Positions 881 through 44,567 of a stretch of DNA of 64,000 nucleotides are shown here, one piece after another. Both the position numbers and the translations under genes were made by a program. This DNA is from Candidatus Omnitrophota bacterium. GTDB lineage: Bacteria > Omnitrophota > Omnitrophia > Omnitrophales > Aquincolibacteriaceae. The stretch spans positions 83,471 through 147,470 of the forward strand of contig JAUYMS010000003.1 in NCBI GenBank assembly GCA_030698625.1, written 5' to 3'. Position 1 is the first letter of the stretch. The number at the start of each line of letters is the position of its first letter. The notes below the pieces were generated by a model. That model saw nothing but the letters and a program-made list of their open reading frames with translations. It was not told where the DNA came from and made no database searches.

Positions 881-905
881 ACCCAAATACGACAGGATCA
901 AATTG

Positions 906-1025
906 ATGCGGAAAAAGAATTTCAAAAGGGGATTTTGCATCTGGCAAAAACTAACGGCCGCCTTTGTATCGGTCTGCATGATCCTCTTGAGTGTTGTCGA
1001 ATACGTGCCGGCCGCTTATGCCTCG
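906..1025 (+). other. Sec-type signal peptide or signal anchor of the giant protein (MRKKNFKRGFCIWQKLTAAFVSVCMILLSVVEYVPAAYA|ST).
   Basis: Basic n-region, about 20-residue hydrophobic core, A-Y-A motif before a polar stretch. Confidence 0.55.
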
Positions 1026-4000: not shown

Positions 4001-7000
4001 TGTTCAGCTGCAGCGCGGATCAGCGCGCTCTCTTACGGCACAGCTAAAAAAGCACATGATAAATCTGGGGGATCTCTATCAACAGAACCGAGGCAACATC
4101 ATTTTCATGCCGCCCGCCGACTACTCACGGCCTTCAGCCCAAGACCCCGTGCACATGATTACGCAGATTGCGGTTGCCGCCATGCTGGCAAGCCGTGAGT
4201 CTTTTCCGGGTGCCGTTGTCACGGATCTGGGCGCCGGAGACGGGTTGCTTTCGCAGATTGCCCTGCGGTTGGGGGCCAAGCGGGTCGTCTTAGTCGACAG
4301 GAAGTACGGACAGCTGAGGAAGGCCGAAAAACTCCTTCGAGGCCAGGGCTATGACCAATTTGAATTACTCGAAGCCGATCTGACCGATACCCGCTTTATC
4401 AAACGCATCCTGGAAGAAAATCTCGACCGGGAATCTACGATTGCGCTCGTGAATATCGGACCGCATAAGCGCCTCTACGGCGACGCGAACCGGATCGTTA
4501 TGGAGCGAATCATGCGGTGGACCGGCTTGGGGTTGATTATCAATGCGGGATACTATGGCTCCGGGTGGATCTTCCCGGAAGCCCACGACGAGGAAATTAA
4601 GTATCTCGAAGAATTGCTTCCGCACCATGGCTTTGAAACGACGGTCTATGAAGACGGTATGGGTTGGCGCCGGGCCCTGACCGCGAAGCGCGGCGCGCAA
4701 CGCTCTGAGTTAAGAGCGGAAGAAGGCAAGGCTGAATTTATCGCGCGTATGGAACAGATCTTTGCCGGCGTGAAGCAGTCGGGAAAAAAGCTCGGCACGG
4801 AAGAGTTCGCAGAGCGCATGGGTTATCCGGGGCGCTGGGTCACGGCAAGAAATCGCGCCAAGCGTCTGGGTTATCCGCCCGCGACCTTGCAGCAATACGT
4901 TGAAACCGGGGCCGGAAAGGGCAGGGCCAGGGAAACCAAACAGGAATTCGCGGCGCGCCTGGAAAAGATTTTTGAATCCGTCAGGAAGTCGGAGAAAAGA
5001 GAAAAGATCTCGCGCAAGCTTTTCATGCGCTTAACGGGTTATACGAATAAGTGGGATGCCTTACTGCAGCGCGCGCGCAAGGCCGGCTACGCGTGGGAAG
5101 CCATCAGTCCCTATGTGGAGGCAGACGAGGCCCCGTCAAAGATTGAATTCTTGAAGCGGCTCCGGGCGATTGCCGACGCGGTGAAGCGCCATAAGAGACG
5201 CGACAAGATTTCGCGTGATTTCTTCATGCGCCTCATGGGCTATCCTGAAAATTGGACTGCGCTTATTCAGCGTGCACGCACAAGCGGCGTTACCCTGGCT
5301 GACATTAGTGAATTTGTTGAGAGTGCCGAAGAAACGGGGGTCGATGACAGAGGCCGCATACGCGAAGAGCAGCTTCGCGATGCCGTCACGACGGCCAAAG
5401 AAGAATTCGGTATAACGGGTCAAAGCATGCAAACCCTGAACCGCGCAAGGCGCGCCGAGTATCTGAACCGCGTTGCCGCACTTGTCGGTTACACGAACCG
5501 AAATAACTTCCTTCACCTTACCGAAAAAATGGGCGTGAATCTCGCGGCATTCGACATTCACCGCCTGGAGCGCCTCGTTCCGTATACGCTGACCGAAAGC
5601 CGCCAGTGGTTGATTGACAATCTGCCGAAGCCGGAGGATACGGAGGGCCGAAGGAAGTGGATCAGCACGATCATGCATCTTACCGGTATGGGGATGCTCG
5701 GCAGGACGGCCGCTTATACCTTGCTGCGCGCTGTAAGCTCGGGAGAATCCGGATTCAGTGAACTCGACAAGCCGGTGGCTGAAGAACTCGAACTGGATCT
5801 CTCGACCGTCTCCTCGTCGCTGCTTGGTAAAGAGCCCGTATCCATGGACCGTTCCCCGAATCTCCTAGACTTTTTTGTCACGGCGGCCAATCGCAAACTC
5901 GAGATCGAGCGGCTCAACCCATCGGCCCGCAGCCGTCAGATTACGATGACCCCGCTGCTCGATAATCATCTCTTTCCGTATCACTTGGAGCAGATGCTCA
6001 CAACACAAAGAACGAGCACAAGGGCAGGGGTGCTGGTCGAAGAAGTGATCGGGGAGTTGGGGAGTGAACTGAATGCGGAGGAGCGTACGTTGCTGCGGGC
6101 CGTTGTGCGGGCCCGTGCCGCGGGCACGCGCTTGCGTTATCAGACACATCGAACCGTTACCGCCGCCAATGAAATCTTGTTTGGGACCCGGGAGACTCTT
6201 GGGAGTACCGGCGTGTATCACAAAGTCAAAGCTGCCGTTGAGAACAGCGAAAAGCTCCGCGCAGCATTTGAGGCTTTGCGGGGTGATCTGGATCTTTCCA
6301 CGGACCGTTTTGACCGCGGCTTTTTCGAGTGGCTTCATACCGGGGGGTATCTCCATGACGCCGAGATTCATGGCATTACGCGGCTTATGGTTTACGACAT
6401 CGAAAACGTACCGTCGCCGCATCTCTTGCCGAAACTATCGCCTGAAAACAAACAAGCCTTTGCCGTCGCCTACTTTAGAAACCATCACTTTCAGCAGATT
6501 GCCGAGAATAGCGCCGCAGTCCTCGATGACCCGGGCCTTCCGGTGCATACGCTCTCAGCCGGGTCTCTGCGGGGATGGATTCAGGGGCGCCGGCCCCGAA
6601 AGATTGTGGGCGGCATTCGCAGGCTCGAAGCCGCTCTGAAACCGGGGAGTCCGGTTCAAGAGGTGCGTGAAAGTTCTACGGAACACGAACGTGAAACAGG
6701 ACAAATACTCGCGGGCGGGGGGCACAATAAGGATCTGTTGAGTTTTATTAACGGCCTGCATATGCGAAGGGCGAAGGTTGTCGCATTCTTTAATTTGGCG
6801 ACAAGGATTTCAGAGTCGGTAACGGGTCCGAAGGCCCTTGAGCTGAAGCATGCCTATCAAACTTTGCTTCTTGGGGTACTCAAGAACCCTGAATTGGAAG
6901 TCGACTCAACGCCTGTCCATCTCATGCTCATGAGCACGATTGTTAACCACCGTCACGACGAGGCGTTTTTAAGAAAATTCTTCGAGACCTTACTCGTGGC

Positions 7001-10000
7001 GGCCCATGGCATGAGCGCGCGAGTTTCGAACAGAGAAGCGGCGAACATGTTGGCCCGGACAATTCAGGGTTCGGCTGTCTATCTTGCGGCCGGCCCCAAG
7101 GGACCGATTACGCGCGAGGGTCTGGTTCACGCCTATCAGCGATCGGCGGCGGAGAAAAAACGTTACCTCAAAGTGCAGACGGTGCGGGACGACGCGGAAT
7201 TTCGTCTCATGGGCAGCTTGGCGGTCCCGGTTGGCTTGCGCCCCGATAATGTTTACTTCTCGAAGCTCTACAATGCGGTCATTGCAAAGGTCTATGCCCC
7301 GGTCCGCGTTATCTCTGACGAAGATGCCGCCGGTCACAAGGTCCGGAACAGATCACCCAAGACGTTGCGGCATGTCCGTGAAAGCCAAAAATTTGATCTC
7401 GCAAAAATTCGCAGTGAAGCCGACGAACACCGCCGGCGCCTGCGGCAGGCAGAGCGGCTCGCCTATGACTTTTGGGGCACCCAAGGCGAGCCGGGGTATT
7501 GGCCGGAAGAGAAGGTGAAGGGCTACATATGGACCCACTACCGAAGGTGGGTTCGCGAGGTCGTGTGGGAAAACGGACGCCGCGACATGGGCAGTCACGA
7601 CGGGGTCGATATGGAGGACCTCATGGATCTCGCGCGGGATTCAGTCGCCTATGTGGGTTACACCTACAATGCGCCGGAAGAATTCACGCTCAATCTCGAC
7701 GACCCGGGCTCCCCCGAGGAGCGTCACGCAATGATCACCGGAGTTGAAGCATTGGTGCAGGAAAAGGATGCGACCCTTAAGGAATTCGAACTCATGGTTA
7801 AGGACAAAGACAAAGATGCGACGGAGCTAAAAAGAGCGGGGTTCGGTTTGAAAAAGGCGGAGCGCGCAAAGGCTTATGTGGAATCAGTGCTGACGCTGCA
7901 TCGGCATTATCTGGAAGGGGATGCCGAAAAGGCAGCTAATGTGTATTTCGACCTCGCCGAGCAGCGTGAGACGATCGAGCGGAATATTATGCGAAGTCTG
8001 TTCACGAGTTATCTCAGGCCGAGTATTTTGCATTACAAGTCACGCCGGGCGGTCAAACAGGCGTTTTTTGAATTGAAGGCCATATCTCTGGATCAGCCGC
8101 TTCCCGACGGTGACGGTGAGCTTATGGACATCGCGATCCCCGTTTTGAGATCGCGGGATGAAGAGGCGGTTATCGTTGATGACCCGAGGCTTGCCTCCTT
8201 CCGCAGCATTGCCATTAAACAGCACTTTGCACAAGTGAGGACATCAGCCTTAAGTGATACGGATCGGGATCAATACATCATGCGGCTTTATTACGGACTC
8301 GAGCCGGCGTATGCGGGTGTTGACCTGACGCAGACAGACATCGCGACTATCGTCGCCTTTCATGGCGGGGCCCTCATTACCGATGAGCGAATCCGGCAGA
8401 TTATCGCCAGGCACGACAAGGATATTTTCCGGAGAGTGGTGCACCTGGCCCAGGCGGATAACCTGAAGTCCTGGGACACCTTTATGCTTCAACTCGGAGT
8501 TAAGGAGCCTGATGACGCTCCGCCGCCGGTTGTGATTCCGATCGAAGAGAACGAGTCTAAGATCTGGCTGGGCTCACACATTTGGATTGCCACATTGGGG
8601 GATCATGCGGGCAAATATCTCTCCTTCAAGATCATCGCCTATGACCGTTACAATCCGCGCTCCGCCGATGCAGGCTACAACAACGTCGAACTGCAAAAGA
8701 GAATCTACCCTTATATGCTCGAGATTGTCGTCAGGGATCCGACAAAGCCGGAAAAGGGCAATGAAAATCTGGTCGCCGTTTTTCACGTGCATGTGATTCA
8801 TCGGCCCACCGGATCCGTACAGCAACTACCCATCATCGCGGTTCGCGGAAAGCCGCATTACTTCCTACGCGTTGATAGCGGTGCGCATGACAGTACACTT
8901 GAGCCGGCGGCCGAGAAGGTCGACCGGGATCAGGGCGAGAGGCCGGAGCCTACGGAAGTTCCCGAAGAGCCCGTTCGGGAGGCCGCGATAGAAGAGCCTG
9001 TCGACCGCTTTAAAGATTGGCACGAGTCGGCGATCCCGCATTTGCAAAGACAGCTGAAGAGCGCGCAGGCGACGTCACTGGGGCACCCCGATTTTGAGGA
9101 ACTGGCACCGGTCGGGGAACACGGAAGAATCTGGGTAGCGTATCAGAAAGGGAACGTCGAACGTAAGGCCTTCTTCCATACCGGTATTGCAGGCGAAGGT
9201 CAGGCATGGGTGGGGCGGCGGTATGATCTGAGTAAGTCTCTTTATGTCTATCGAATCGTGCGCGTCAGCGACACCGGCGAGGCCGAATCCACTCGCTACT
9301 ACAGGCTGGATCTTGACGACCATGGCCAGCCCACCGCGATGGGCTTCCGTGAATTTAAGTACGACGGCAGTGTCTGGGAAAAAGTTTCCATTCCCGGCCC
9401 GTTTTGGCTGAAACAGCGGAGTGAATTGAGATCGGCGTCAAACACCGATGATTTTGATCCCCGATTGATCGATACCTACAGCCGCCTATTTGTCGAAGGC
9501 CTCCTCAATACAGTTGAGTCGGAGGGGTATCCGGAACCTTATCAGGGTGCGGTCAAGGAAGCTCGCTCCCGTCTTAATGCCGTCGATATGCCGAGCCTTG
9601 CGGATGTTCTTCAGCCGGTTGAAGCGGCATTGAAAATTCCGGTCACGCTCGACGGTTTAAGCGGTGCGGCAGACGAAACTAAGGTTTACGAACTAGCGAG
9701 ACTCCAATATAAAGTCCGCGCCCTAAACAAGTTTCGCGTACCTATTCGGGAATTTATCAAGAATCTAATGGAGCGGGCGGAATTTGCGGCAAGGATTCAA
9801 TCGTCGACCGAGGGCCCGGTCCGGATGGGACTCATTCATTTTGAAGAGGAAGGACACAAATCGGGTCAATACAGCAACGGATTGGCAGACATTGTGATTG
9901 ACTGGATGAGCACGTGGGACGCCTCGGTCAACGCGATTGTGTTCAGAAACATACGTTTCGATTACTTCTTCAACATCGTCGGGTTGGCAAACGCACTGCA

Positions 10001-13000
10001 ATCCAAGTTTTTCCCGGATGCCCCTGATCCCGACGCCTTAGTTGTTCTCTTGCGGGAATCCTTGAGAAATGCCGTTGTGTGGGGCAACAAGAGCCGGCCG
10101 GACAATTTAGCGGCAATACGCTGGCGGTTCGAGGGAGAAGAGCTTGTCATCGATGTCATTGACCGGAACCGGGAAGAGATTGATTTCACTAAAAAACCGG
10201 AACCCCCGCGGGGCGTCAAGCCGATCTACTATAGCCCGCGTACGGATCCTGCCTCGGGCGGGTATCCGGGGGACATCAAACCCTTTATCGATCCCGCTTT
10301 CCTGACGGGTGATCGCTACGATTTTCCGATTCTCGATAAATCCGGCCGGCGTCTAGGCCAGGTCCTGCACCTGCGTTACCCCTATCCTCAACGATCCGAG
10401 TTACGGGACGAAGACGATGAAGAAGTACTGGGTTATGTGGCCGATCATGCCGACTTCGATACGACGGGATTTATCACGAGCCGGTTTTCCGGAGGTTCTA
10501 ACGTCGTCGGTTTGGGGGATCTCCACACGAATCTGGCGGTCAAGGCGCAGACGATCGATCTGATACGGTCGGGGGAAATTACGCATCTGGTTATGGAGCT
10601 GAACGGTGAGGATCTGAACAAGGCGCTCAAGAATCGGGAATCATTGCGCGAAGCGATTCGGCGTCATTTTGAAATCCTTGTCATTAATGACGAAGACATC
10701 GAGAGTTTCGTCGACGTGATCCTTGCGGCCCAGACAGCCGGCGTTGAGTTGGTCTTCCCTGATCCTCGCAAGACGAGCCGGCCGGACGATCCGGGCCAGG
10801 AGACGGTCGACATGGAAGCGGCCCTGGCAATCGGGTCTATTGTCAGATCTGATCAGGATGCGAAAGTGCTGGTTCTATTCGGAGCCGAGCATACGCGCCG
10901 CGGTCTGCGCTGGCCGCGCAAGGAAGGCCGGAGCCGCCTTACCCTGGGAGAAAATCTCAAAACCGAAGAGGGTGTGCGCTACTATTCGGTCTATCTTGAA
11001 TCGCCGGACCGCAGGGATACCTCGGATTACACCCTGGTGAGAGGCGATAAATACCGCCAGCAGGGATTCGCCCTTACAAATATGGCGTCCTTCCCGCGGC
11101 AGATGCTGGACAGGGCAGCCGATACCGACTTCTTTCGACCTGAGGAAATCGATGCCTACGTTCAACTGCCTCTCCTTAGTTACGAAGACTACCGGACACT
11201 CGTCGCTGCGGGAGAGGATCTACCCAAATTTGTTTTGCCGGAGTTTACCGAAGACTTGGCGGTCAAAAGCAGTGTCGGCGAAAATGAACCGGAGCGCCGC
11301 CGTGCCATCCGTGAAAAAGCGGCTAGGCTGGTGGCCTTGTTGAGAACACAACCGGACGCCGATTGGCCGATCGAAGAAATGGTTGAGGAGTTTAACGGGT
11401 TCCGTCTTGATGTGAGCGAGTACGCGCCGGAGATCGGAGTCATTTATCTCTGGCTCAGCCCGACCGACTCGTTCACGATATCCGTCCCTACTTATTTCGC
11501 CGTCCCCTCACAAGGGATCGTCGTTCACGCCCCGGAATTCAGCGATGACCGCTATGAGGATGAAATCATTCAACTGCCCATCGAGATCGCGAAACTCCTG
11601 AACGGTAATGAGATTGAGAAAGACTCCAGCGGAATCTTTAGCCCGGCGGGGTCTGATATCTACTGGAAGGAATGGAGACAGCGGCATGCCTATCAATACT
11701 ACCGGACCCTCGTGGGCCCCATTGGGGCGGGTGCGGTGCAGGCGATTCTAGCGCGCGAGAGCGGCAGGAAGTGGAGAGTTGTCGACTTCTTCGCCGGAGA
11801 CGGGAGCTTCTTGCGGTATTTAAGTAAACACTTAGCAACGGTGCAGCCGGACACGGATGTTGATTACGCGATGGTGGAGAAGTTCAGCGAACTCATCGAT
11901 CAAGCGCCGCGTACTTTAGCAGGCACGGCGGTCGAAATTCATCAAGCGGATATTCGACACCTGCAGGACGTTAAAGCGATTATCGGTAAGAAGCCGGTCA
12001 TCGTGACAGCCTTCGGCGGGTTGAATTCCGGAGTCGTCAAGCAGGACGACGCCGAGGCCATTGCGAAAAGAATCTACGCAGCCTTGCCGGCCGGCAGTTA
12101 TCTCGTGCTCGGCGGCTACAGCGCGATGATGGTCAATGCGAAGGAGCTCGCTGCAATGGGCTTCGAGGTGCTCAATACGGGACTGCCGCATTACATGGTG
12201 ACCGAAGACAGAGAAGCTCCCAACCAACTTTATATCCTGCGCAAGCCCTATCCGTGGTATCGCGGCGGATTGTGGCGCTCGGAGTTAAGGAGCGCTTTTG
12301 ACTACGATGCCTACAGGAAGCGTCAAGAAGCCGGTCTTGAGGTAATCCTTGAAGAGATCGATGCCCTGCGCACCGACGGCCGCTGGGAAAAGATGCCGCT
12401 TAGTGCGCGGCTCCAACTGATCGGTGAGCGGGCCGACGTGGTTCCCCTCGACTGGGGCGCTTGGCTTGAGCTCCTCGAAAAAACCGGCATGTGGTTCGGG
12501 CCTGAGCGTGAAAAGATGGAGGACCCCACCGATCAGGTCGAGGCTACGATGACGGGTGACTACCAAATACTTCAGGCGCCCAGCATGCGCCAGCCGCAGC
12601 AAGGCGAAACCTACTCGCGCTATCTGACCTCCTATGGCGCTTGTGACTGTCTTGTGTTGACCCTTTATCATCCGGGTACCAAGGTCGGCATGATTGATCA
12701 TCTGTATCTGGAGCGAAAGAAGAATCCCGCCGAGCGCATCGCCGGTGCGCTAAAGACGATGCATGAGGAGTACGGCATCGATCCGCGCGAAGTCAGGGCC
12801 GAGATTTCCGGCGGTCAGATGGACCTATCGAACTTCAAGGCCATTCAGATTCTCGAAGCGCTCGAAACGCATGAAGTGCCGATCTACTTCTTCCAGGCCC
12901 TGGACTTCCCGCTCGTTATGCTGGACGGCTATTATCCGTATGCCGAGGGTGACGGCCATGTCGCCCTGGATTTAGAAACGGGCCGCCATTACCGGCTGCA

Positions 13001-16000
13001 CGATATTATCCCGCCCGCACAAAAACGACGGCATCGGTCTGAGCTCAGAAAGGGGAAGCCGATTGAGGATTATCTGAAGGAGCTCGAAAACGAGAAGGCC
13101 GTATTCGGACCGGACAACGCAGGGGAATTTTCAGAGAGCCACCGTTATGTGGACGGTATTCTTAAAAAACTGATCCTTACAGCGGGTTTTGATCCCGCAG
13201 AGTACTCTCTATACCTGGTCGATGACCCGGAACCCAAAGCCTGGATTCAGGGGCGCTATCCCGCCGTATTTATCTCGCTCGGCCTGCTGCGCTTTTTCGG
13301 GCGCCATCGGCTTTCACAAGACGCCCTGGCCCACCTCCTGGCGCATGAAGTGCTGCATCTCCGCCAGCATAAAGAGGACGAGCACTATAGCGGGCCGTCA
13401 AGCTGGTCTGAATACTACGCGGAGTACTATGCGAATGAGTACGACGCCGATGTCCGGGCACTCAGGCTTATGGCTGAGGCAGGATTTTCCATTCAGGACG
13501 CCGAATCGACTTTCGAAAAATTACGCGAGGGAATGGGCAAGAATGATTACTCGCCTCTCGGCTCCTACCCGCAGATGCGCACGCGCAGCGACCGCATCAA
13601 ACAGATCCGTGATTACGGGCGCTGGCCCGACAGCGCGCGCGCCGCGCCGCAGGCCATGCCTCAGGAGGTTCTTCGCGAGGCCATGCGTTTCTCGCTCAGG
13701 CGGCAGAAATGGCATCGCGCCAACCGCATTAATCAGGTGAAGGAGCTTTCCGAATTGATCGAGACGGCTGATGCGCTCAATGACCTTACGTTTATCCTAT
13801 GGTCGGGTCTCGGACGGCTCAAGAAGCGCCGGGTCCTGAAGTCGGCAAAGGTGCCGCATGCCGTCGAGTCCGCGCTCGTGACCCGGCTTGCTGCATTACC
13901 GATCTGGCCCGAATATCTCTCGGCCGACACGCGTGACCTCGCCGCGAAACTACTCGGTAAATTCCTGGCGGCGACTGTCTACGGAAAGTTTATGGAAAGA
14001 ACGGTGCTGATCGACCATGAATTGTTGAATGAAAAGGCATTGCTTGACGAGCTTTCGGAGATTTTTCACTCGGCAAAGAACGCGAAAGATGTGCTCGACC
14101 TGATCTCGGCGGCGATCTTTGTGACGATGCCGCAGCGCATCGCGCTCGGGCGTGAGACGGCCGGCGACGCTCAAAAATCCTATGCCGCATACCAAAACCG
14201 GTGGCATGCCGAACCGCGGCGGGGCGGTGACACGGTGGGATGGGTCTATACGTGGGAGCAGTTTCTGGGACGGGCGCTGCTCGAAGAAGTACCGTACGTG
14301 CCGATAGCCGGCCGGCAGGTCCGGTGGGGCCCTTTTATCCGCGTCGTCGGCTGGATTCAAGGGGCCGTCCGGTTCGTTCTCGGCCGGTTCGTAAGTATCG
14401 ATTGGATTCAGGTGCGTGACCCGCTTGCCGGGTGGACGGCGGCAGACCTCGGGCGCGTGTACGAAGCGGGCGCGGGGCGTACCTGGGGCGGGTATCATAT
14501 CGGTCCGATGCGTCATTCCAATGTGGTCGGCATCGACCACTGGTTGTTTCAGGCGGCGATCAATCATCCCGAACTCGTAAAGGCCATGGACACCGATACC
14601 TTCCGCCGTTTTGTCAAAGACGCCACGAAAATCGCGGTGGCCAAGGGGCCCGGCCACAGTGATGATCCCGAGACACAGGAAGCCAAGATGCGCAACATGA
14701 TTTATGAAGCGGCGTCTTTGGATGCCGCCAAGCGTGAGGTGATCCAAAATCTTCTGGGTAATGATTATGATGTCTTCGGCTTCTTCAGAACGGGGATCGA
14801 ATCGTTTCCCGATACCTGGATCTTCGGTGAAAACGCACCGGGTACCGGATATGCATACGCAGAAAAGAGAATGGATGATCTCATCCGGCAGCTGCACGCG
14901 CGGCGCGGGTCGATCAGCGGTATGGTGCTCCACCACTCGGAAGTGCTTCATGCAAGCGATCGTCTTGCGGAGAGCGCGAAACTGACGCAGACCGAACACC
15001 TGCGCCTCATGGCCCACCTTGCGAAGACCGAATGGTATTCGGCTGACATGATGTGGCACAGCCTGCTCGGCTGGGAATCGGGTCGCGTTCAGTGGATACC
15101 CTCTTTTCTCGGACAGGCCGACGACGAGCTGAACGCCTTCATCGACCTCGATTTGAGGGCGCGGCTCGGTGACGGCGTCTGGGAAAGCCTGCCGGTGACG
15201 GGACGGTTCATTTTTTATGCTTACCTGAACGATATCTACCAGTTGCCCGCCGACTGGGAAGCTTGGGACCGGGAAGTACAGTCGTGGAGCACGGAACAGA
15301 TCCGGTTGCTGCACAGGGTGGTTGCACAGAGTACGAACCGGCCCGTCTTCGACACGGATGCGAGGCTTGACCGCGAGGCGATCGACCGCCGGCCGCCGCT
15401 TCCTTACCGCCGTTCGCGCGAAGAGCTCTTGTTGCGCTTGAGTGTGCTGGGCCTTTTGAAGGAACAGGGCGTTTCTCTAAAGAAGTATTTGCCGCCGGTG
15501 GAACTCGGAAGGTCGGCGCCGAGCGGGGCCTTTGGTTTTGCGGATCAGCTGGCTGATTTGCCGCGCGGAAGGAAGGAGGACAATCCGCGCGTCAGGCGGG
15601 CGATGGATCACCTCTTTCACATGTTCCGGCTTGAAAAGGGCCGCTCGCCGTGGATTAACCGAACCGATATCGAAAAGAACGGTGAGCAGGGGATGACCGC
15701 CATCCTGGGTTATGTGTTCGCGGAAACCGGCGAGACTCCCGCAGACATGGCCGATCGTATCGCCCACTGGCTGCCGGCCACGGCTTATCGTAACTGGGTG
15801 CTCTATCTGATTTTCATGCACCACTACCTTGGCCGAACACTCGGCGTTAAGATAGACCGGAAACGGCTGGGGGATACGAGCTATATGGCGGAGGTGTGGG
15901 CAAGCGTGAGTGATAACCAGCGTGAATCCGCACGTCATTTTATTCGGGAAAAGATCGCACCACTCATGGTGCAGGATGCGCGATTGGAAGGCTTGAATCT

Positions 16001-19000
16001 CGCCAGGGTTTTTGACCATTTTATTCATGAGAAACTCCATGAGGTTGACGAAGCCGCTTACGAAAAGGCATTGCCGGGTTTTCAGGATGTAAGGTATTTC
16101 GTTCCGGGCACCGTGTTGACTCAGCTCGACCTCATGATGGGGGGCGTATTCTCCCCGGGAATTTCAGAGCAAATCGCCGATGCGGCAAGCGATCCTCAAG
16201 ATATTCTCGAACAGATCAGTACGGCCTATCCGCGTGCCTCGGCTGAGCGCGACCGTTTGTTGGTCGAACTTGCCGACCACGCGCGTGCCGATAGCGGCGT
16301 CCTCAAAGACATCATGCCGCTGCTTGACGGCCCGTGGTATAAGCAGGAAATCGGAGTGCGGGCACTTAGAAGCATTCGTGCTTCGCAATCCACAACGTCT
16401 GTTGACGATTCCCTGAAGCTCATCGAAAACTGGCTGCCGAGCGCGACGCCGATACGTGACGGGCTCCTTCACGAGGTCATTCAGGAAGAGGTCGGCACGC
16501 TTCCGGAACTGAATGCGGTGGAAGAAAAGCTCTTCGCACTGCAGCCGAACGAACAGAGGCGCCTGCGCGGAAACCAGGCCGTGGCGCTTATGGGCCTCGA
16601 GTTTTTTCAGGCCATATTCGGGTACGGCACTCCGATGGCCTCCAAGCTGGACCTCTTGGATTGGTTTTTCTTTGAGGGCGGCAAGCCGGACATCCTGCGG
16701 CGCTATGAATTTCATTTCCGTATTTCCTTTGAGGGTTTTATCGAGGAATCCGGCGATCTCGCCAAAAACGAACCTGAGGTTGCGCGCGAGGTCAGAAAAC
16801 GGCTTCTCGCGTTTGTGTTGGACGGCGACCAGGGTATTCTTTCAGACGACGATGCGACTGACGAACTTTTTAATCGGCTGCTGGCCCGCTGGCTTCCGGA
16901 AAACACCGAATTCGACATCGTCATCCGCACGGTTCTCGAGAGTTTGATCGGGCTCTCCGACCGTTTGCGAAAACGTGAAATCCTCATGCACCTGTTGGCA
17001 GGCCCCGACGATCTCAGTGCACTCGGAAACGACCCGGAACTCCGGCAAGCCAAAGTGGCGAAGCTCATTCTCGAAGCCAACGGCTTAGTCGGTATCAAAG
17101 TCGGACAGGTGCTCGCGAACTCGGCACTTGTGACCGATATGCCGGTGCCGATGAGGACGGAATTGGCGAACCTGCAGGACCGCGCCGACCCGATGGACCG
17201 CGCCGTGAGCTTGCGGATTCTCGACCAGATCCACAACGGCAAACTGCACGACCATTATCCGCGAATCGGCCGCGTGCTCGGGAGTGCATCCACCAGCGTC
17301 GTTTATGACGCATGGCACCGCAGCGGGCGGCACGTGGCGCTTAAGCTGCTGCGGCCGACCGCGCGAAATCGTACTGTCGGTGATCTCGCGATGCTGAAAC
17401 TCATACCGGCCGATGTCATCGAGCGGCTGAATGCGAAGAATATCGCAATTCCGGAGTGGCTTGAAAACTACCTCGGTCTGCTTGTCGGGCGCGTCGAACG
17501 TCTCGTGATGCCCGAACTCTTTTATACGGTGGAGGCACAAAGCATGGACCGGTTCAGGGTGCGTCAGCTGGCGCGGGGTTCGGCGCTCCGTATTCCCGAA
17601 GTCGTGGAAAATCCGGGTGACGATCTGATTGCGATGGAACTCATCGAAGATGCCGTGCCGGTTTCAGATGAAGCGGGCATCAATACCCGAGGGCGGCAGA
17701 TGGGTGATGTGCGGCGCGACATTGCGCAGGAGATGATCGTCGAAGTTCACGAAGGGGAATATCACGGTGATCCGCATCCCCGAAATTTCCTGGTCGACAA
17801 GGACGGCCGACTCTGGATGATTGATCTCGGTGCTGTCTACGAGGTGAGTCCGAAGAGTGCCGCATTTCTCATCAGCCTCGTCGCCGCCTTGCACATGGGC
17901 GCAGATATACGGCCCATTCTCGCGGACCTGCTTACGGCGAATGCGGATCCGGCCGCTCTTGAGTCGGCGATTTCAGAAGCGGCGCGAGTCGAAACAATTC
18001 CGGAAAAGATTGCCCAGATTTTCCTCACGCTTGACCAGCAGGCGCTATTGCCCGAAGACCTGGCGCTGACACAGCGGCTTTTCCTGCAGGGCGGTCACAT
18101 CTTCGAAGGCCTGAGTCTCTGGGACCTCATGCAGATCGGCGAACAGCTCAAAGACGGGCCTCAACGCTCCGAGCTCGGATCCGAAACCCCCGTCGTGCGG
18201 GAAGGTCTGCGGCCGGATTTGACACCGTTCATCGGTATCGGCGTACACCGTAAGGACCATCTGTCTTATGGGAACTCGGCCGCAATTGAAGGCGCGGAAA
18301 AGTTGACGGACTTTCTTCGGGACCGCGATTTGCTGCATGAGATACAGCTGACCGTCGAGACTGAGGCCCAGTCTCAGATCGGCCGCGAGATTGCGTCCAA
18401 ACTAGACCGGGTTCCCGACGCAACAATGCGTTTGATTGTGGACGGAGCGTTCATGCAAAAGTGCTGCTCCGAGGCCGTGCTGGGTATCTTTGACCACTTG
18501 GAGGCTAAACCCGGGCGTTTCGCGGAGCTCCATCTGCCCCTGGATCTTATCCTTTACTGGGACGACCGCCAGATGCGGGACTCTCCGCCCGAAGAAAAGG
18601 AGGAATATATTGCGATGCAGGTTCTCCCGAACCTTGAGCGCCGTGGTTTTGGATATAAGGCTTACGGTGTCAATCACCAGATCCTGGCCGAGCGCGACCC
18701 GCCCAAGGGAGGCGAAACCCGGCTGGTCGTCAAACTCTGGCATTCCGCCAAGGAAATGGAGAACTGGGCCGACAGCCTCGCGGCAAAACCCCTGAGGTCG
18801 GAGCTGAGGGCGCTCGAGCCGGTGATGCCGGTGAAGAAGGTGCTTGTCATGACGGGCGAATATTCTTATATGCCGTTTGACAAAGAGCGTGAATGGGAAC
18901 GGTACGTGGTCGATTACCTGCGCAAGGCCGGTGTCGAAGCAGAGTTTGTGTACGCCAACGGGGCGGGTGGAACCTTGCGGCGATTCGAAGAGGAGTTCGA

Positions 19001-22000
19001 TGAAATCGGTCTCGTGATCGCAACCGATGACGTCCTGCGCGGCGTCCGCGAACGGGAACGTCTGATCGGGCGGAATCCGGTGCCTTATATCTTAATGAAG
19101 ACGACCTATCTGCGAATGGACGAACCGGAGCTCGAAGAGCTCGGCAATGCGGTTTATGTGCATAGTGGGCTTGGGACATTGGACGAACTCAAGGAAATCA
19201 TTCCCGAGATTGTCGGCAACGCCGAAGGGGCGGTCTATGAGCCGTTTTGGACAGGAGAAGGCATTGAGGCGAAACCGGCGCGGGAAGGGGTCGAACATCC
19301 GGCCGTCGAGTTGCTTGAGGAATTACGGCAAGACCTCACAAATCCCACATTCCTGAAAAAGATTTACCGCGACACGACCGACTACGATGCCGAACCCCTG
19401 ACAGCGCGCTTCACGTTGATTCCCGGATACAGTCTACCGGCTTTTCCGATGACGCCCGCGAGTTTTCGTGACGACGTCCACCGCCGCATTATCAAGGAGG
19501 TTTATTCCATCCTGCCGCATGTCATCGAATTTCCCGTGGAGGCTACGGGCCGCGCGCCCGTGGTCATCGGAGCGGACTCCGATGAAGGCATCGCCCGGTG
19601 GGCGAAGACAATGAGGGTCGGCAGCCGTTTCGATCAGTGGATCAGCGATAAAATGCCTCTGGTCCATATCGAGCAAAGCCTCAACCGGATCATGACCGAA
19701 ATCGACGGAAAAGAACGTGCGAACAAGGCATTGAGGCGTAGTGTTTACAGGAAACTCGGATGGCGTGTCCACGATCTTGAAATCAAGAGCGAAGCGGCAG
19801 GCGATGAGGCGGGGCAGACGATATTTAATGTTATGGGAACGTGGCTCCTTGCGAACCCGGAGGCCGTCACTCGCGCCTGGGTGGCCGAAGACGAAGACGG
19901 CGCAGCGGCCGGTATGCTGGTACTCAAAAGAACGATTGCGAACGAAACCTTCGGTGAGCACCGGGAGATGGTGAATTCAGCGATCGCAATCGCATCGGAT
20001 GCGGCAACTCGCGGCAAGGGAATTGCGCCGCGTATGATTCGCGAGAGTTTCGAAGCCATGCGACAGAGGGGCATACGCTATTACTTCGCGGATATTGATT
20101 ACCGCAATAAACCGTCTTTCCGCACTTTTATAAAAACAGCGGCCGCGGCCGGGGCTACGGTGACTCACTTCCCCGAAATGACGACTAGCCGGGAAGAGGA
20201 ACGGCCGTTTCTGATCGACCTTTTTTCCGACCAACCCGCGCCGCGCGATCTTCCGGAAGCGCTGCCCTCCGATCCCGATGAGGCCTGGGCTTATGTTCTG
20301 GCGCAGGGATTGATGCAGGAGCCGAGCGATGAGTACTCGTGGACGCCACCGGCCGCTGACGGGGACCGGGCGGTCCGCGAGTATCGAGTCAAAGATGTGA
20401 CCGAAGAGATTGAGGCTGACGAAGATGCGGGGACCTGGATTGATTTTCAGGAACTTTATGACGACAAAGTGCATGCAAAACTTAGGGATATCACGGAATA
20501 CCCGGACCCGGCCGGCCATGAAGCAATGATGAGAGGATTTGAAGTCCAACCCGACGGCAGTTTTGATACCGTCAAACTTGAGGATGGGGCCTACTCTGCG
20601 ATTGTCCGCATTGCGGACCGCGCCGCCGTTCAGGATACCCAACAAGCCTTCCGCAAGTTTGTTGATGCGATTGCTAAGGTGTTTCCGGCGGATGTGCGTG
20701 ATCAAGTGCGCGTGTGGGAAACCGGCGAGGACAACCCCCATATCGGAACGGCGGTCTTTCAGGTGCCCGAAGTACTCTTGGGCGGAAAACAGCCCCGCTT
20801 GCAACCGCGGCATATCGAACCTCTGCAGGAACTTGTCCGTGAAATGACTCAGGACGAAGAAACAATTCCGCTCACTTTCTTGGGCTACGGCATCGGAGCC
20901 GACGGCGGCTTTGTGCGGCTCTACAGCGACCCGGCCGGCCGGTTCATGAAACTGCGCAACGCCCTTCTCCTCAAAGGCCACAAGGTGAGCCAGATGTACG
21001 CTTCGGGGCGGGGAACGAACATTATTGCTATGACCGGAGGCCGCATTTTGCATCTGCCCTATTCCGCCGATGCCGCGATTGCGGCCCGGCAGAAGGACCG
21101 CGTTCTGGAAATTGTGCGCGACAGGGCGCAGGCCTTTCAATCGCAGTGGGAACAGAACCTCGCAGAGCCTCAAATTCTTGATGTCGACGGCCTTACCTGG
21201 GTCTTGGAAGACAAGTGGCTGACCGAACGCAACGAACAAGGCGTCGAAGACGTCTTCTTTCCTTTTGGCGGCCGTTCGGAGCTGCGGAGTTTGAGCGAGG
21301 ATCTGTTAGCTGAGTTGGCTGCGGAGTACGCGGTATCACGGTTGACGAGCGGCAGGAATTCGGCCGAAGAGCAGGAGCTGATGCTGAAAACCATGCGGTC
21401 CGATGTCCACAAGGCAATCCTCTGGCGGTACAAGGGCCTTGAGTTTGAACTTCGCGAGCGTATCGAAGAGGTTGTCTTCGAAGCCGTTCAGGCTGCGGTG
21501 AGAACCTATGACGGAGTACGGCTGAGCTATCTCGATTATTTTTACGCGACGGCACAGGAAGCTATTTTGCATTTTTTCGCAAAATCCGTGCCGGCGGCAA
21601 AGCGGCCCTATCTGCTTTCGGAGCCGCTTGAGGCATATCTGAGGTTTCTGAGTCTCGAGAACCGCCGGCCGGAGCTCGACGAGTTTCTCGGTCTGACCGT
21701 AAATGATATGAAGAACGAAGATTACCTCGTCCTGCAGAGAGAAACGGATGCCGCTAACTACGAAGATTCGATTTCGGTGCCGGTTCGTGCGGCGGCGCCG
21801 GAGAATCAACTGCCGAAGCCCGTTCAGATCGCGAACGCGGGAATGGTGCGGCTTGCGAAAGCATTCGGAATTCAGGCGGCCGACATCACGGCAGCCATGA
21901 TCCACAGCGTGCCTAACACCGAATGGGCCGTGCTCTCCTTATTTTTCGGCATCGATGGCGAACTCATACAGGATCCCGAACAGATCGCCCGAAGGCTCAC

Positions 22001-25000
22001 CGAACTGGGTTACCGCGATGCGAATAATGAAGCGTTACGGGGCGAGAAAGTTTCCGACTACGTTGTCCGGGGTTTGAACCGCTTGCAAAATCGCGAAACC
22101 GGGCGCACGCGCCTTGCCGATGCGTTGGGCAAAAAGCCGACCGAAATTACGCCCGATCTCCTGCAGGCCTTGACCTCGCGTGAAGAGGCGCTCATCCGGT
22201 ATAAGTTTGGTATCGGTAAATCGCGTCTCATGACTCATCTTGAGATCGCCGAGAAGTTGACGAAGGAGGGCTTCAGCTTCAACGACGGTGTTCACGTGAC
22301 AAAAACACTCTACCGCATTTTACAAAAGCTGAAGACAGCTCAGACAGGGTGGCAACTGCTCGCCGCCGATCTCGGGAAGCCGGAAGAAGAAGCGAGACGT
22401 GATTTCGAGAAAAATGCGGCAAAAATGACCCAATTGGAAACATTGGCCGTCACCCATTATTACGGTCTCGGGGTCAACCGGATCAAAGACAAAACACGCC
22501 TGGCCAAGCATCTGAGTGATCTGACTCATGAGACCATCCGAAGGAATCGCCTTTACCGTCTGCTTGCGCGAGGCCTTGCCGTGCTGCGCGGCGAAAAGAA
22601 ACGCGTCCGCGTCAAATCCGCCTACCAACCGCCGATCATTTCGGAGATCCCGGAAGAAGTGGGCGTGACTGGCGACGAACTCCTTCAAGTCATGCGCGCC
22701 GCCGCAGGCGATCAATCTCTGGCGGAGGCATTGGTGCCCGTCCGGGATGCATGGTATGCGTTGCATCCGCTCGGGCGGGAAATCCTGATCATCAACTTCG
22801 GCCTCGGAGTTACGGCCGCAAAATCGCTTCCTGAGATCTCCAAACGCCTGAAAGAAAGTCCTTACTGGGTTGAGAAAAGTGATCCGGCAAAGACAACACT
22901 CACACGCCATCGCCGGTTAGCGCTTGCAGATCTAAAACAACGCGTGAGCGGCCTTAACCGCCTTGCCGAAGACACGGGTGTTTCCGAAGAGTATCTTCCG
23001 GGAATCATTTCGCAGGGACTCGCGCTTGAGCAGAAACGTGTTCTCAAGATGACTTTCGGACTCGATACCGAACGAATCGTGCCGGATAAATTAATCGTTG
23101 ATATCTTTCGTGATGCATGGAGCGAGGAAATCAATGCCATGCGGGTGCGGACAGTGCGCAGGGACGCACTGCAGAGGATCCGCGAATTTGCCGTCAACGC
23201 GGGTTATGCCGACGAGTCGGTTCTGACGAAACGGAAAAAAGACATGTCGAAACGGACGCCGCGGCCGCCCAAATGGACGCGCGAACGAGTCGACCAACTC
23301 ATCGCCGAGTCTGCGGACGAAAAGTTGCGCGCTACGATCCTGCATCGCCAAGGCCTGGGCGGGCTTGTCAATGCGGCGTCGGGTTTCTACGGGTCGTGGC
23401 AAAAGGCTCTGGAGGCGCATCACCGCGATATTACGAAAATCAACATACGAAAAACACCGCAGCGTTCGGAACTGCGGGCAGACAGTCCGGAGTTATCGGA
23501 TTCCCGAGATGCGGAATACAAAAAGAGACTGACGGACATTCTCGAACAGCGCGCTTTGATCATGGAGTTAAGAGAGCTTGAGCCCGCGAGCGATGAAATG
23601 GTAGCGGTCATCCTGGAGCGGTTGGGAGAATACGCGGCTTCCGCGAAAGCGAGCCTGGTTGATGTCGAGGATTTTAAGTTCGTCCTGCGCCTTGTGACGA
23701 ATCCCGCTTGGAGGACGGGTAAATTTAGTGAAAAGATGAAGGCGCTTACTCACCTTTGGGGATATGTGGTGTTCACAGCTGTACGGGAACATCGCATGAA
23801 TCCGCAACTCCGAAGCTCGGTAGACCACCTGATCACAGACATGCTTGGTGCGGAGTTTGAGAATAGGGCCCCTCTCCGCAGGATTCTAATTAACACCGAG
23901 GTTGGAAGCCCGTATCACGAAAAACCCCTGCACGGTGAGGAGCAAATGCTGGGCTCCGACTTTGTGTATTTGATCAAGAGTTTGGCTAAGAATCTGAATT
24001 TATCCGGCCGTCTGGCTGAGAGGAACGACCGCCTTGTCGGGCCCATCCTGCGGGCTTTCGAGGGCCGGTATGATTTTACGCTGACCGAGGCGGAGCGGGG
24101 CAAAATTCTGCAGTTGATGGAAGGCAATGACCTCCTGGCCATTTTTGTCTCGGCGATGGACAACGGGCTCACCCGGCCGCCTTCCAGAGAAATGACGCTT
24201 GAAGACATCCGCAAGATCCGCGGGAAATTCCGCGAGGTTGTGGCGGATTCGATAGGGTCGTATCCGGTCTCCGCGAGGGACCGGATCCTCGTTCGCATCC
24301 TGCAGAAGCAGCCCGAGCTTGGCCGTGAGTTGATGGCTGAGGCTCAGGCGGCTGTGAGTTACAGCCGTAAGCCCATCGACTTTGAGGCAGCCGGGGCAAG
24401 TACTGTGAAGAGGCGAAAAGGTGTGAATGTTGCCGATACCGAAGGTTTTGGTGACTTTGCAGTAAAGCACCCCGACCTTCATGCGGTTTTGACGTCCCGT
24501 GAGAGTCTGCTCACGCTCATGCAGACGGCTGCGCTTGTCCGCGACTTCTTTCCGTATACACTCACGGCCCCCGACAAACTGCAGACCCCGGTTCAGTTTG
24601 CCATTGAATACGGAATGTATCTGCCGTTGGGGCATGGCTATTATCTGACACCGATTTCCGGCTCGTTCAAACGTCACCTGCTCTTTACGATGGATGACAA
24701 GAACCGGCCGGTCATGACGGTGCCGATCAAGATTCCCGGAAAGATCCCGGGCCGCCGGCCCGCTCTAAACGGTGATCTCGACCGCTACCGCGATGCCCGT
24801 GAAGTCTTTGGCGACGATATGGAGATTGCCGGAGCGATGGGAACCGTGGAGCCGGCGGGACTCGAGTCCGTTATGCTCTATGGCGAAGAGCGCGAAGTCA
24901 CAGAGAAGGATCATCTGCGTGTTCTGGTCTTGGAAGGGCCCGAAGCCGGGTGGCGCGTCGAATATCTGCGCCATAAAGACCTGCAGCGGATCTCAGACCA

Positions 25001-28000
25001 TTATCCCAAATACCATGGTGATGCCAGCCTCGTTGCCGACGATATTGCCAGAAGTATTCTTCGCGGCGTGGCCCAGTGGCATGCTCTGAACTATTTAGGA
25101 AAAGGCCCGGGAGAGGGATCCGGCACGGACCTTCACACCGGCAATTGGGAACTCCTCACGCCGCCGTTAAACGGAGACCCCGAGCAGGGTATCTCAGTCC
25201 GCAATATCATCGATCTTGCTTCCCTGCATCAATATGTAGAGGACCGGGCGGCGTTTGATGGGCAGCGCATGTGGGATCTCAAAACGGTCATTGATGCCAG
25301 AGATGTCCTGACGGGCCCCGGAGTCACCTTCAGTCTTTTGGCGCTGCACCTCAAGGAGAACGAACACGATTTTCTCGAAGACCCTCACGACCTCTTCGAA
25401 AAGTACACCGCGATCTATTCGGAGGAGTATGAAGCGGTCAAGCAGATAGCCAAGCGGCCGCCGCCGATGAGTTACAGGGAAATCTATACGACAATCCTCG
25501 GAGAGACGCATGAAGCACCCCTGATCATTACGGGGCTTACGGGCGCGGGAAAAACGATCTTGGCAGAAAACTATGAGAAGTATCTGCGGGAAGGGGAGGT
25601 GGAGGTGCCGGCCCACCTCGTGCATAGTGATGGTTTCTTACGGTACTCGGTAATGGCCCTGCTCATTCGCTTGCTGATCACGCTCGGCTGGATCAAAGTT
25701 GATGCGCTTACGAAGGAAGGCTTCATTCAGCGGCATTACTTCGATTTGGAGAAACGCGACCGATTCGTCGATGAAGTCAAAGCCGGAAAGTACGAAGGCA
25801 AGCAGCTCGTAATCGAAGGCATCTTCTCAGACATCCTTTTTGCGCAGGCCTTAAATGCAAAGACGCTTCTTATAGAAGCGAACAGCGCATCGGTCTATGA
25901 GGAGCGGTACGTCGACCGGTCCATGAAAGACAAAAAACGCCTCAAGCTGCCGGCCCAATTCCTGGCGCGTACGCTGATTTCAAATCGCTTAAATCAACAG
26001 CTCCTTGATTCAAGGGAGAATCATGACCTTGTCTTGAACCTTGATGACATCTTTAAGCCGAAGCTGACCGTCAACCGGCCTCCTAAAAAAGCAGAATTAC
26101 GCCGCTCGGGACTTCTTAAAGTCATAGTCGACGCTCTGACTGCCCCGGCGGGAATTCGCGAGCGTCTTACCGCCGACGGGGTGAAGTTCGGCAGCGTGCC
26201 GGAACCCTACGTATCGACATTCGACCTTGAAGGCCTGCCCTGGGTTTTTACGCAATACCGGAATGAGGACAAGGATTCTCCGTTGCTATCGCTTGATGAA
26301 CTCAAGGAACAGGCTTTGACATTGACCGGCACGCTGGAGGTGAAGTTCGACGGCGGTGCGAGAAACGCCGGGGTCTTTCTCGGCTATGTCCAAGAAGTCC
26401 CGCATCCAGTTGTTATCAAATACTTCCAGGCAGGCGTCAGCGATATGGATGCTTATGATCGGGCACTTGAACTTTATATGGCGCAAATAGTCGCGTTCAG
26501 CGGGGTCGGGCCTGAATTTTACGGGGTGCTCGTCGAGGACGGGGAGATTGTCGGGTACGCCATGCAGGCGGCCCCGGGTGCGTTCGCGACCCAGACAAGC
26601 GACCTGCTTTACCTCATGCGCTATCTGTATCAATCGGGTGACGCCGACAACAAGGCCGTGCAGCAGAACGTGATGCGAATCGAAGAGACGATGGCCCGCT
26701 ACGCCATGGTTCCCGTAGACGGGCATTTGAATGTTCTCCTTTCCCGGACCGGGCACATATCTTTGATTGATGCGGGCAATGTCCGGCCGGCTTCCGAACT
26801 TGCGGAATTTCGCATGCCCTCGTGGATGAGTTCCGAAGAAAAAGTCAAGCAGCTGTTCCAACTTATGCAGGCCTACCTGCAAAAACGACGGCCGCTAATA
26901 ACCCGTCGCGGCGCTATTCATACGTTGCTTGATCATACCCAAGCGGAGCACGCAGCACCTCTTGTATCGGTAACAACACGGGAGATGATGAAAGATGGTT
27001 TGCACGAAAGCCTGGTTAAGTACGTAAGGCAGGGAGGGCATCTGGTATTGACGACTCCAGCCTTCAAAGAAGAGGCCTTCCTGAGCGCGATCGACGGCAT
27101 CCACCGAAATTTTGCGGAGACCGGCGAAATCGAATTGCTGGGCCGCATCCACTTCATCGCAAGCGACAATAATCTTAAAGACATTTTTGTCTACGAATCC
27201 GATGCGGGCGGGTACCGGTTGTTGCCGGACGATCCGATGGAACCGGATCCCCTGCTCAAACTCGTTCGCTATCTGAACACGGCAGGCCGCAAGGTGCTGC
27301 CCTTGATGTCCTATGACTATGAGTCTGCCAGCGTACCCCGTCGTGCCTATTTCGATACTGCCCATCGCGTGTTTTCGCAAACCCCACATGCCGGCAAATA
27401 CGTTGCGATATGGGATATCGAAGAAATCACCGAGCGGCTTGCCGAACGCGCCCCCGAAGAACTCGAAAAGGGCAGGAAGGAACTACCGGCTCAGCAGGAC
27501 TTTATGGAATGGACATTCGAAAGCACCCCGTTCGAGGTGCCTGCCGGAAATCAGGTGAAGGTGATCGTCGGGGAAAAAGGACGGGGCGCACCGGGTTTCG
27601 TTTGGGCCGGTGTCAACGATTGGGAAAAGACCTATCTGATTCCGTTGGTTCAAAACCCGGCGACCGGCAGACACGAAGCCGTGCTCCCGGCCGGCACGAC
27701 CGCATTCACGTTCTATTGGCGCGATTCCCCGAAGGCCGCCGGCGAGCGATGGGAAGGCCGCGATTTTCATGTGCGCTCTGCTGAGCGCTCGGAACTACGG
27801 GCAGCCGCGGTCAATATCACGGAAACCGTATTGCCGAATGCGGGGCTCAAAGGAATGGCGTCACAGGATGCAAAGGTGCTGATCGCCGAACTGGACGGCG
27901 ATTTCCTACTGGAAAGTAAGACCTGGCCCGAAAGGAATGCGCGCACGTTTACCGCCGCCGAACGGAAGATCTTCGAAACGGGTGAGGGGCTGACGCCGTT

Positions 28001-43465: not shown

Positions 43466-43468
43466 TGC

Positions 43469-44271: not shown

Positions 44272-44275
44272 AAAG

Positions 44276-44560: not shown

Positions 44561-44567
44561 AAACGCC

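Follow-up and report, generated by a model that had tools for sequence, protein, structure and literature searches.

How does a kinase-like domain best known from stand-alone proteins come to lie near residue 5400 of a protein of 12,250 amino acids, and what might it do there? This question is raised by a 64,000-nt stretch of a Candidatus Omnitrophota genome (assembly GCA_030698625.1, contig JAUYMS010000003.1, positions 83,471 to 147,470 of the forward strand), referred to here as the window, in which a giant open reading frame (ORF) encodes a UbiB/ABC1 domain. Proteins of this family are ancient and universal; they are known mostly from stand-alone members tied to quinone and prenyl-lipid metabolism, and their biochemistry is debated, with kinase, ATPase and lipid chaperone activities all under discussion. 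An initial annotation of the window had placed the domain at nt 17090-17940 and attributed it to domain capture by an exported polyprotein, followed by repurposing. We find that the domain belongs to a core that is shared, in the same order, by dozens of very long proteins.

We confirmed that nt 17037-18152 encode a genuine and full UbiB/ABC1 domain with a complete set of catalytic residues. The range flagged initially reaches from the KxGQ motif to just beyond DxG; the whole fold, including N-terminal helices and C-lobe, is wider. The motifs quoted in support of the assignment are all present in canonical order on the forward strand, in the frame of the giant ORF: GIKVGQVL, LANLQDRADP, HVALKLLRP, YHGDPHPRNF and MIDLGAV. 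KxGQ is represented by KVGQ (residues 5399-5402 of the giant protein, nt 17097-17108), the nucleotide loop by GSASTSVVY (residues 5460-5468), the lysine of VAxK by K5481 (VALK) and the glutamates by residues 5538 and 5544; the catalytic HGDPHPRN lies at residues 5621-5628 (nt 17763-17786) and DLG at residues 5641-5643, with Asp 5641 falling within IDLGAV. The domain matched Pfam profile PF03109 (ABC1) with E = 8e-26 and 91.1 bits against a cutoff of 22.9, over profile positions 2-232 of 244. It also matched the UbiB profile TIGR01982 (E = 9e-35) at 120 bits against an equivalog cutoff of 487.55, and PRK04750 at 73 bits against a cutoff of 667, falling short of an equivalog of UbiB proper. Since its TIGR01982 score is far below the equivalog cutoff, we regard the domain as a member of the UbiB family and not as an ortholog of UbiB proper, and repurposing away from UbiB proper is plausible. 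A tblastn search of the 64-kb window with seven stand-alone UbiB proteins found no second ABC1 gene.

The resemblance extends well beyond short motifs. We aligned the domain with 13 stand-alone UbiB-family proteins (alignment A1), in which K80/G82/Q83, the nucleotide-loop Ser, K162, E225, H302/D304/H306/P307/N309 and D322/G324 are invariant; K5481, E5544, H5621, D5623, N5628 and D5641 of the giant protein occupy invariant columns. Hence, KxGQ and the catalytic Asp align as expected from UbiB and ADCK3, with a nucleotide loop that reads GSAS and not AAAS. A model of the domain built with AlphaFold2 (AF2) from A1 (pLDDT 77, pTM 0.76) has helices preceding the N-lobe. The 12 best Foldseek matches of this model in the PDB were all UbiB-family structures (COQ8A/ADCK3 as 7udq, 5i35 and 4ped; Rv3197 of Mycobacterium tuberculosis; MSMEG_1954 of M. 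smegmatis), with E-values of 2e-11 to 1.5e-8 over about 350-410 columns and target-normalised template-modelling (TM) scores of 0.54-0.69. Beyond these 12 the E-value jumped about 1000-fold, to 1.6e-5, for PknB, RIO and other kinases. A profile that includes the window's domain matched Rv3197 at 4e-86 and COQ8A/B at 1e-61 to 1e-63, in each case over the whole fold.

UbiB, COQ8A/ADCK3 and COQ8B thus share with this domain a kinase-like fold with an N-terminal KxGQ helical domain, and the same order of KxGQ, nucleotide loop, VAxK, Glu, HxDxHPxN and DxG, the difference in setting being that they are stand-alone proteins of about 550 residues. The closest solved sequences are Rv3197 (MABP-1) and MSMEG_1954, which phmmer aligned collinearly over about 270 residues (E = 3e-12 with the single sequence) and which have a catalytic segment of the same HGDxHPGNF / IDFGAV type. 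They differ in being soluble stand-alone proteins of about 440-450 residues, with about 22% identity in the structural alignment; MABP-1 is labelled a macrolide-binding ATPase by NCBIfam.

An exhaustive phmmer search with the domain against 1.84 billion cluster representatives revealed its nearest kin. About 30 of the 36 best matches were proteins of 932-5772 residues with an ABC1 domain deep inside, and these embedded relatives outscored the stand-alone UbiB proteins of about 550 residues; a word-indexed protein search missed them and returned only stand-alone UbiB proteins, at no more than 29% identity. BLASTP of the relatives against the giant protein gave three collinear blocks, at residues ~15-445, ~4030-4310 and ~4900-5750, and Pfam identified three full-length relatives as Peptidase_M48 plus ABC1. 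The predicted core, as read from these alignments, is an N-terminal signal or anchor with a domain of about 500 residues, an M48 protease, an alpha-helical scaffold of 470 residues and the ABC1 domain, in an order that recurs in many independent assemblies. This core appears to define a family of very long proteins, from ~1.4 to at least 6.9 kaa (thousand amino acids), in Omnitrophota and Elusimicrobiota, of which our 12,250-residue giant would be a hyper-expanded member and is the longest seen.

The embedded ABC1 domains also group together by descent. A neighbour-joining tree of 163 domains, built from 351 columns, placed the 36 embedded domains, that of the window among them, on one side of a single split with a bootstrap of 75/100, together with the likewise internal ABC1 domain of P0068, a protein of 869 residues. 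The window's domain is among the more divergent members, its nearest relative, P0017, being 35% identical. In a motif comparison of 35 embedded domains with stand-alone UbiB proteins, the embedded domains read LGSASIKVVY in the nucleotide loop, where stand-alone proteins have AAASI(A/G)QVH; V.K.KRP in the strand that carries the Lys, for VAVKVQRP; LKD for LQD; YHADPHxGN for FH(A/G)DPHPGN in the catalytic loop; and ID(L/V/A/I)G for DFG. Our domain carries the GSAS..VVY and ID-L-G of the clade, without its LKD and K.KRP. The Lys, Glu, HxDxHPxN and DxG, together with the K, G and Q of KxGQ, are invariant in the embedded clade at an overall identity of 25-35%; this indicates selection on catalysis and argues for a working nucleotide-hydrolysing site. 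Since the core is common to dozens of long proteins, and since their embedded domains form one clade with its own signature, the fusion is, on this comparison, apparently ancient, and what is special to this gene would be the ~10,000 residues accreted around the core.

The other two shared blocks are similarly well kept. The M48 block contains AHEVLH (residues 4147-4152, nt 13341-13358) and EYDAD (residues 4179-4183), and AHExxH and ExxAD are retained in at least 85% of 23 family members. Scanned alone, it matched PF01435 at 28.1 bits against a cutoff of 20.3, over profile positions 4-78 of 186 only. Every full-length relative has this block in the same place, upstream of ABC1, and it might process membrane substrates or the giant chain itself. 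The scaffold (~470 residues, mean column identity 39%) is present in all relatives, always directly upstream of ABC1. Profile searches with it against the PDB and Pfam found nothing significant. Its AF2 model (pLDDT 79, pTM 0.77) is all-alpha with 26 helices, and Foldseek returned only weak solenoid-type matches (best E = 0.012, TM score ~0.18). Motifs of the scaffold are a twice-repeated (Y/F)P..S..RD..L, FLLWL.G..DEKP and FLYGEKG.

The coordinates of these and the other features of the giant ORF are listed in the table below. Its listed start is TTG. An ATG follows as second codon, with AGGA 8 nt upstream of it, and is the likely start of translation. Relative to the core, the giant protein has about 3,600 extra residues between the N-terminal domain and the M48 block and about 6,500 after ABC1. 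We found no tblastn counterpart of these extra residues at the loci of 28 relatives outside the three core blocks. They are without annotation by Pfam or the PDB apart from the methyltransferase, GNAT and class-II-aldolase segments, and when the rest of the giant protein was searched against PDB sequences, only GNAT and methyltransferase relatives came up. We considered whether the extra residues are neighbouring genes of the relatives that had been fused in; this is unsupported, because tblastn with the whole giant against the 28 loci matched the core blocks only. Self-BLAST revealed no internal repeats in the protein, which is almost cysteine-free (0.1% of residues), and there are no tandem repeats in the window.

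Features of the giant ORF, with coordinates in the window and in the translated protein (SAM, S-adenosylmethionine)
Feature	Residues	Nucleotides	Strand	Basis
Giant ORF		903..37655	+	12,250 codons; ORF listing and translation
Signal-peptide-like N-terminus		906..1022	+	MRKKNFKRGF, hydrophobic core of 16-20 residues, AYA|ST; read from sequence
Conserved N-terminal domain, core block 1	41-546	1023..2540	+	Collinear BLASTP, relatives against residues 15-445
Hydrophobic stretch, single transmembrane segment or transmembrane hairpin	547-588	2541..2666	+	Hydropathy and Hessa scale; PWMGLK mid-stretch
SAM-methyltransferase-like (Methyltransf_25)	1106-1165	4218..4397	+	Pfam E = 1.7e-7, 32.3 bits
M48 zinc-metalloprotease, core block 2	4027-4310	12981..13832	+	PF01435, motifs, collinear BLASTP
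All-alpha scaffold, core block 3a	4899-5378	15597..17036	+	Conserved in all relatives; AF2 model
UbiB/ABC1 domain, core block 3b	5379-5750	17037..18152	+	Pfam, NCBIfam and PDB matches, alignment, AF2, Foldseek
GNAT acetyltransferase-like	6320-6407	19860..20123	+	PF00583, 23.8 bits; PDB 1vhs, E = 3e-4
Class II aldolase/adducin-like	11321-11415	34863..35147	+	PF00596, E = 1.2e-8
SAM-methyltransferase (Methyltransf_25/11)	11838-11937	36414..36713	+	Pfam E = 7.7e-11; PDB 3d2l, E = 1.3e-8

What might the embedded domain do? Proteins of the UbiB family hydrolyse ATP weakly, in a manner stimulated by lipids and phenols, and bind prenylated quinone precursors; the Gln of KxGQ positions a water molecule thought to attack ATP (bioRxiv 10.1101/149823). 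By hydrolysing ATP, COQ8 draws lipid intermediates from membranes and chaperones them (bioRxiv 10.64898/2026.02.03.703536). ABC1K proteins and an M48 protease (PGM48/sll1280) co-reside on the prenyl-lipid droplets of plastids and cyanobacteria (PMC12223511, PMC8956952); there the same two families share a prenyl-lipid surface as separate proteins of phototrophs, whereas in the core family they are fused in one chain. We favour, as the best overall explanation and a reasonably probable one, that the domain is a member of the conserved core with a UbiB-style role near the membrane. It would act as a membrane-proximal ATPase, as in characterised UbiB proteins, and would bind or mobilise hydrophobic, (prenyl-)lipid-like ligands or membrane-embedded substrates, unlike a conventional secreted protein kinase, possibly in concert with the fused M48 protease.

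This explanation depends on where the domain lies with respect to the membrane. The strongest hydrophobic features of the giant protein, among at most four hydrophobic segments in all, are its N-terminus (Kyte-Doolittle peak of 2.14 at residues 17-35, with six Lys or Arg among the first 16 residues) and the stretch at residues 547-588, which has two Kyte-Doolittle peaks. On the Hessa scale, residues 547-565 sum to +0.6 kcal/mol and the second half of the stretch to +1.3 to +2.9 kcal/mol, so that only residues 547-565 make a convincing predicted transmembrane segment. The 20 residues beyond the stretch include 4 Lys or Arg against 1 Asp or Glu. Because there is one convincing transmembrane segment and its downstream flank is rich in Lys and Arg, a type-I-like topology is slightly favoured, in which ~510 residues would lie outside and ~11,660 in the cytoplasm. 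The conserved N-terminal domain, for which Pfam gave nothing at E <= 1, is probably extracytoplasmic, and the sole clearly extracytoplasmic part of the protein. Domains dependent on ATP, SAM and acetyl-CoA argue for a compartment that holds those cofactors. E. coli UbiB has C-terminal transmembrane segments (bioRxiv 10.1101/149823), and a hydrophobic segment lies 140-330 residues past the catalytic loop in 11 of 34 embedded relatives and, likewise after the domain, in 85 of 99 stand-alone UbiB proteins; retention of this UbiB-like anchor supports a membrane-proximal kinase domain on the cytoplasmic face. Hence, of the proposal that the domain sits inside an exported polyprotein, the embedding and the signal-like N-terminus stand, secretion is unproven, and the single transmembrane segment slightly favours a cytoplasmic tail.

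Several observations weigh against a UbiB-style ATPase of common descent within the core family. The neighbour-joining tree is unrooted, its stand-alone comparators were drawn only from the 150 best matches, and its support of 75/100 is moderate. The window's domain departs from the stand-alone consensus at several sites. The Ala triad of the nucleotide loop reads G-S-A; relative to AAAS, the Ser and third Ala are retained, and Gly and Ser stand in for the first and second Ala, in a loop whose Ala-rich form has been used to define the UbiB family (PMC8956952). GQVH is replaced by SVVY, with Val in place of Gln, and DFG by DLG. The Asp of ELD, present in at least 90% of A1, is Phe (ELF), with both Glu kept, and the Asn of EAxN is Ser; Stefely et al. 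are said to have pointed out in 2015 the significance of this E-L-D ... E-A-x-N segment of the N-lobe insert. The domain is also followed by no hydrophobic anchor 110-330 residues past its catalytic loop, and we conclude from its hydropathy that this giant has apparently lost the C-terminal, UbiB-style post-domain anchor. The link between M48 proteases and ABC1 proteins on plastoglobules is one of co-localisation only (PMC12223511, PMC8956952). Finally, if residues 547-588 form a hairpin, the bulk of the chain, ABC1 with it, would lie outside the cytoplasm, where there is no ATP.

The last point leads to an alternative that we consider unlikely, namely that a hairpin, or the signal peptide alone, places the bulk of the protein outside, shown on the cell or delivered into a host or prey cell, where the ABC1, methyltransferase and GNAT domains would act as effectors, for example on host membrane lipids, using the ATP, SAM and acetyl-CoA present there. 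Some Omnitrophota are predatory or epibiotic, and a proposal has been made that prey envelopes are the target of their giant proteins; most domains detected in them are predicted to be extracellular, some of these calls being distrusted by the authors themselves (bioRxiv 10.1101/2023.11.21.568195). In a second catalogue, 94% of long proteins have transmembrane helices or carry a signal peptide, and for some multi-enzyme giants an outward orientation is predicted (bioRxiv 10.64898/2026.06.07.730766). The signal-like N-terminus and the paired Kyte-Doolittle peaks fit export, as do several relatives that show an N-terminal hydrophobic segment only. However, on the biological scale the latter half of the 547-588 stretch scores as marginal, the flank that follows is positively charged, and a third of the relatives keep an anchor that in UbiB accompanies a cytoplasmic kinase domain. 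Moreover, no secretion-system genes adjoin the ORF in the window, where its neighbours are the nuo and atp operons, and there is no known mechanism for delivering a chain of 1.3 MDa.

The glycine of the embedded nucleotide loop bears on a further alternative: as a true protein kinase, the domain would phosphorylate the giant protein or its partners and so regulate the neighbouring enzymatic modules or the M48 protease. In COQ8A, (auto)phosphorylation is unlocked when an Ala of the nucleotide loop is exchanged for Gly (PMC8956952; bioRxiv 10.1101/149823), the embedded clade has Gly first in its GSAS, and plant ABC1K proteins show weak trans-phosphorylation (PMC8956952). We nevertheless regard this as improbable: the residue equivalent to the activating A339 is still Ala, no activation loop is evident, and the KxGQ domain, which in COQ8A closes off the cleft to protein substrates (PMC8956952), is retained with K, G and Q invariant.

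The distribution of the family bears on the origin of the fusion. Named members come mostly from Candidatus Omnitrophota, with others from Elusimicrobia/Elusimicrobiota. Several of them have PGAP labels: 'AarF/UbiB family protein' at 3.1-4.3 kaa, 'M48 family metalloprotease' at 3.1 kaa and 'LPS core heptose(II) kinase RfaY' at 5.6 kaa. We scanned GTDB species genomes with the alignment of the embedded clade (A3) and recovered 26 loci, most of them in Omnitrophota and Elusimicrobiota and a few labelled Planctomycetia, FCPU426, Magasanikbacteria, Uhrbacteria or Gammaproteobacteria. The matching ORFs encode 1,370 to at least 6,913 residues with the same blocks; at two loci the gene is an ordinary stand-alone one of ~570 residues. 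Paralogues occur as pairs in two genomes (L008/L013 and L021/L022). The L021/L022 pair, in Elusimicrobia RIFCSPLOWO2_02_FULL_39_32, encodes proteins of 3,730 and at least 6,913 residues, both with hydrophobic segments soon after ABC1.

A one-off capture of a stand-alone ubiB by this secreted polyprotein, followed by repurposing, is very improbable against this background. The domain is embedded and clearly no UbiB equivalog, the N-terminus resembles a Sec signal peptide, and the domain retains a stand-alone-like LQD and HPxN. Yet its best relatives are themselves embedded, share the 470-residue scaffold and M48 block, identically ordered, form a single clade and span at least two phyla and 26 GTDB species loci, and secretion of the bulk of the protein has not been established; on these comparisons, capture by this particular protein appears largely refuted. 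Weaker still, and scarcely credible, is the idea of a degenerate pseudo-enzyme serving as structural filler, or of an ORF created by faulty assembly or annotation: several private substitutions (ELF for ELD, SVVY for GQVH), the ~10,000 residues lacking counterparts at relatives' loci, and the absence of the giant itself from the results of both protein database searches are set against catalytic residues invariant across a divergent clade, 12,250 open codons of uniform composition with domain matches in one frame along the full length, and a core order reproduced in independent assemblies.

Two loci of relatives illustrate the surroundings of such genes. At L002 17610-25315 (Omnitrophota GCA_015231405.1, JADGBR010000019.1), the gene for a relative of 3,104 residues (P0023) is directly followed by a very long gene, of at least 2,695 codons, with AAA_11/AAA_12 (Upf1-like helicase) domains; another contig of this genome encodes a further family member, of 3,558 residues (L013). 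At L003 1-26311 (ENA ERZ4903072 k141_3839159), a relative of 3,436 residues (P0021), whose 90% cluster includes a protein from an Elusimicrobia metagenome-assembled genome, lies in a mobile-element-like neighbourhood with two large unknowns, Amidase_2, HNH, Vsr with a DNA methylase, SMODS with ThiF (CBASS-like), SRAP and a phage-type integrase. Scanning viral contigs with A3 gave 66 pattern matches, none of them confirmed; because of this, a phage origin of the family is unsupported despite the mobile-element context of P0021.

In the window itself, the giant ORF sits among ordinary housekeeping genes, namely nuoN/M/L (38671-48427, reverse strand) and the atp operon (atpA/G/D), nusA-infB and pnp (53949-62887, forward strand); a Logan contig reproduces the atp-nusA neighbourhood. 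No secretion-system genes lie adjacent, in contrast to many giants of Omnitrophota, for which type II secretion neighbourhoods have been reported. A tRNA-Gly(TCC) at 52673-52743 on the reverse strand is the only RNA gene in the window (ARAGORN, Rfam).

Giant proteins have been described in this phylum before. West-Roberts et al. (2023) reported 'Archaeovorins', with methyltransferases, glycosyltransferases, peptidases, NUDIX, SecA-DEAD and many transmembrane helices (bioRxiv 10.1101/2023.11.21.568195), and Nielsen & Lui (2026) compiled a catalogue of 916 long proteins that carry modules of the methyltransferase, GNAT, HATPase and HAD types (bioRxiv 10.64898/2026.06.07.730766). Our giant resembles the long proteins of Omnitrophota in phylum, in its mosaic of methyltransferase, GNAT and peptidase domains between helical or unannotated sequence, and in its N-terminal signal or transmembrane segment. 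Archaeovorins differ in having at least 30 kaa, numerous transmembrane regions and HEAT content, and SecA_DEAD, glycosyltransferase, NUDIX and dockerin gave no Pfam match in the giant at E <= 0.01. It is thus no Archaeovorin, agreeing with them only in phylum and in methyltransferase and peptidase content. The main texts of both studies mention neither ABC1, UbiB nor M48, and our full-text literature search found nothing that combines UbiB or ABC1 with Omnitrophota or Omnitrophica. The ABC1 domain family, the giant genes of Omnitrophota and the automatic UbiB labels on relatives are already known, and this is no new kind of system; the conserved core, the UbiB signature specific to its clade and the expansion to 12 kaa appear to be undescribed in the searchable literature.

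Fusion of ABC1 with an M48 protease and a helical scaffold in a conserved lineage offers guilt-by-association clues to the role of the ABC1 fold, and it echoes the unexplained co-residence of ABC1K and M48 proteins on plastoglobules. The core also provides an alignable landmark for classifying the largely unannotated giants of Omnitrophota, and for tracing their growth from ~3 kaa to 12 kaa. A bolder extension of the favoured explanation, possible if somewhat doubtful, is that the core constitutes an undescribed membrane-anchored machine of Omnitrophota and Elusimicrobiota in which a UbiB-type ATPase works outside quinone biosynthesis. Prenyl lipids or membrane-embedded substrates, which could come from a host or prey cell, might for example be extracted and handed to the fused protease and, in expanded members, to the methyltransferase and acetyltransferase modules. 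If this were true, the fusion partners would be a natural 'Rosetta stone' for the debated biochemical role of the UbiB family.

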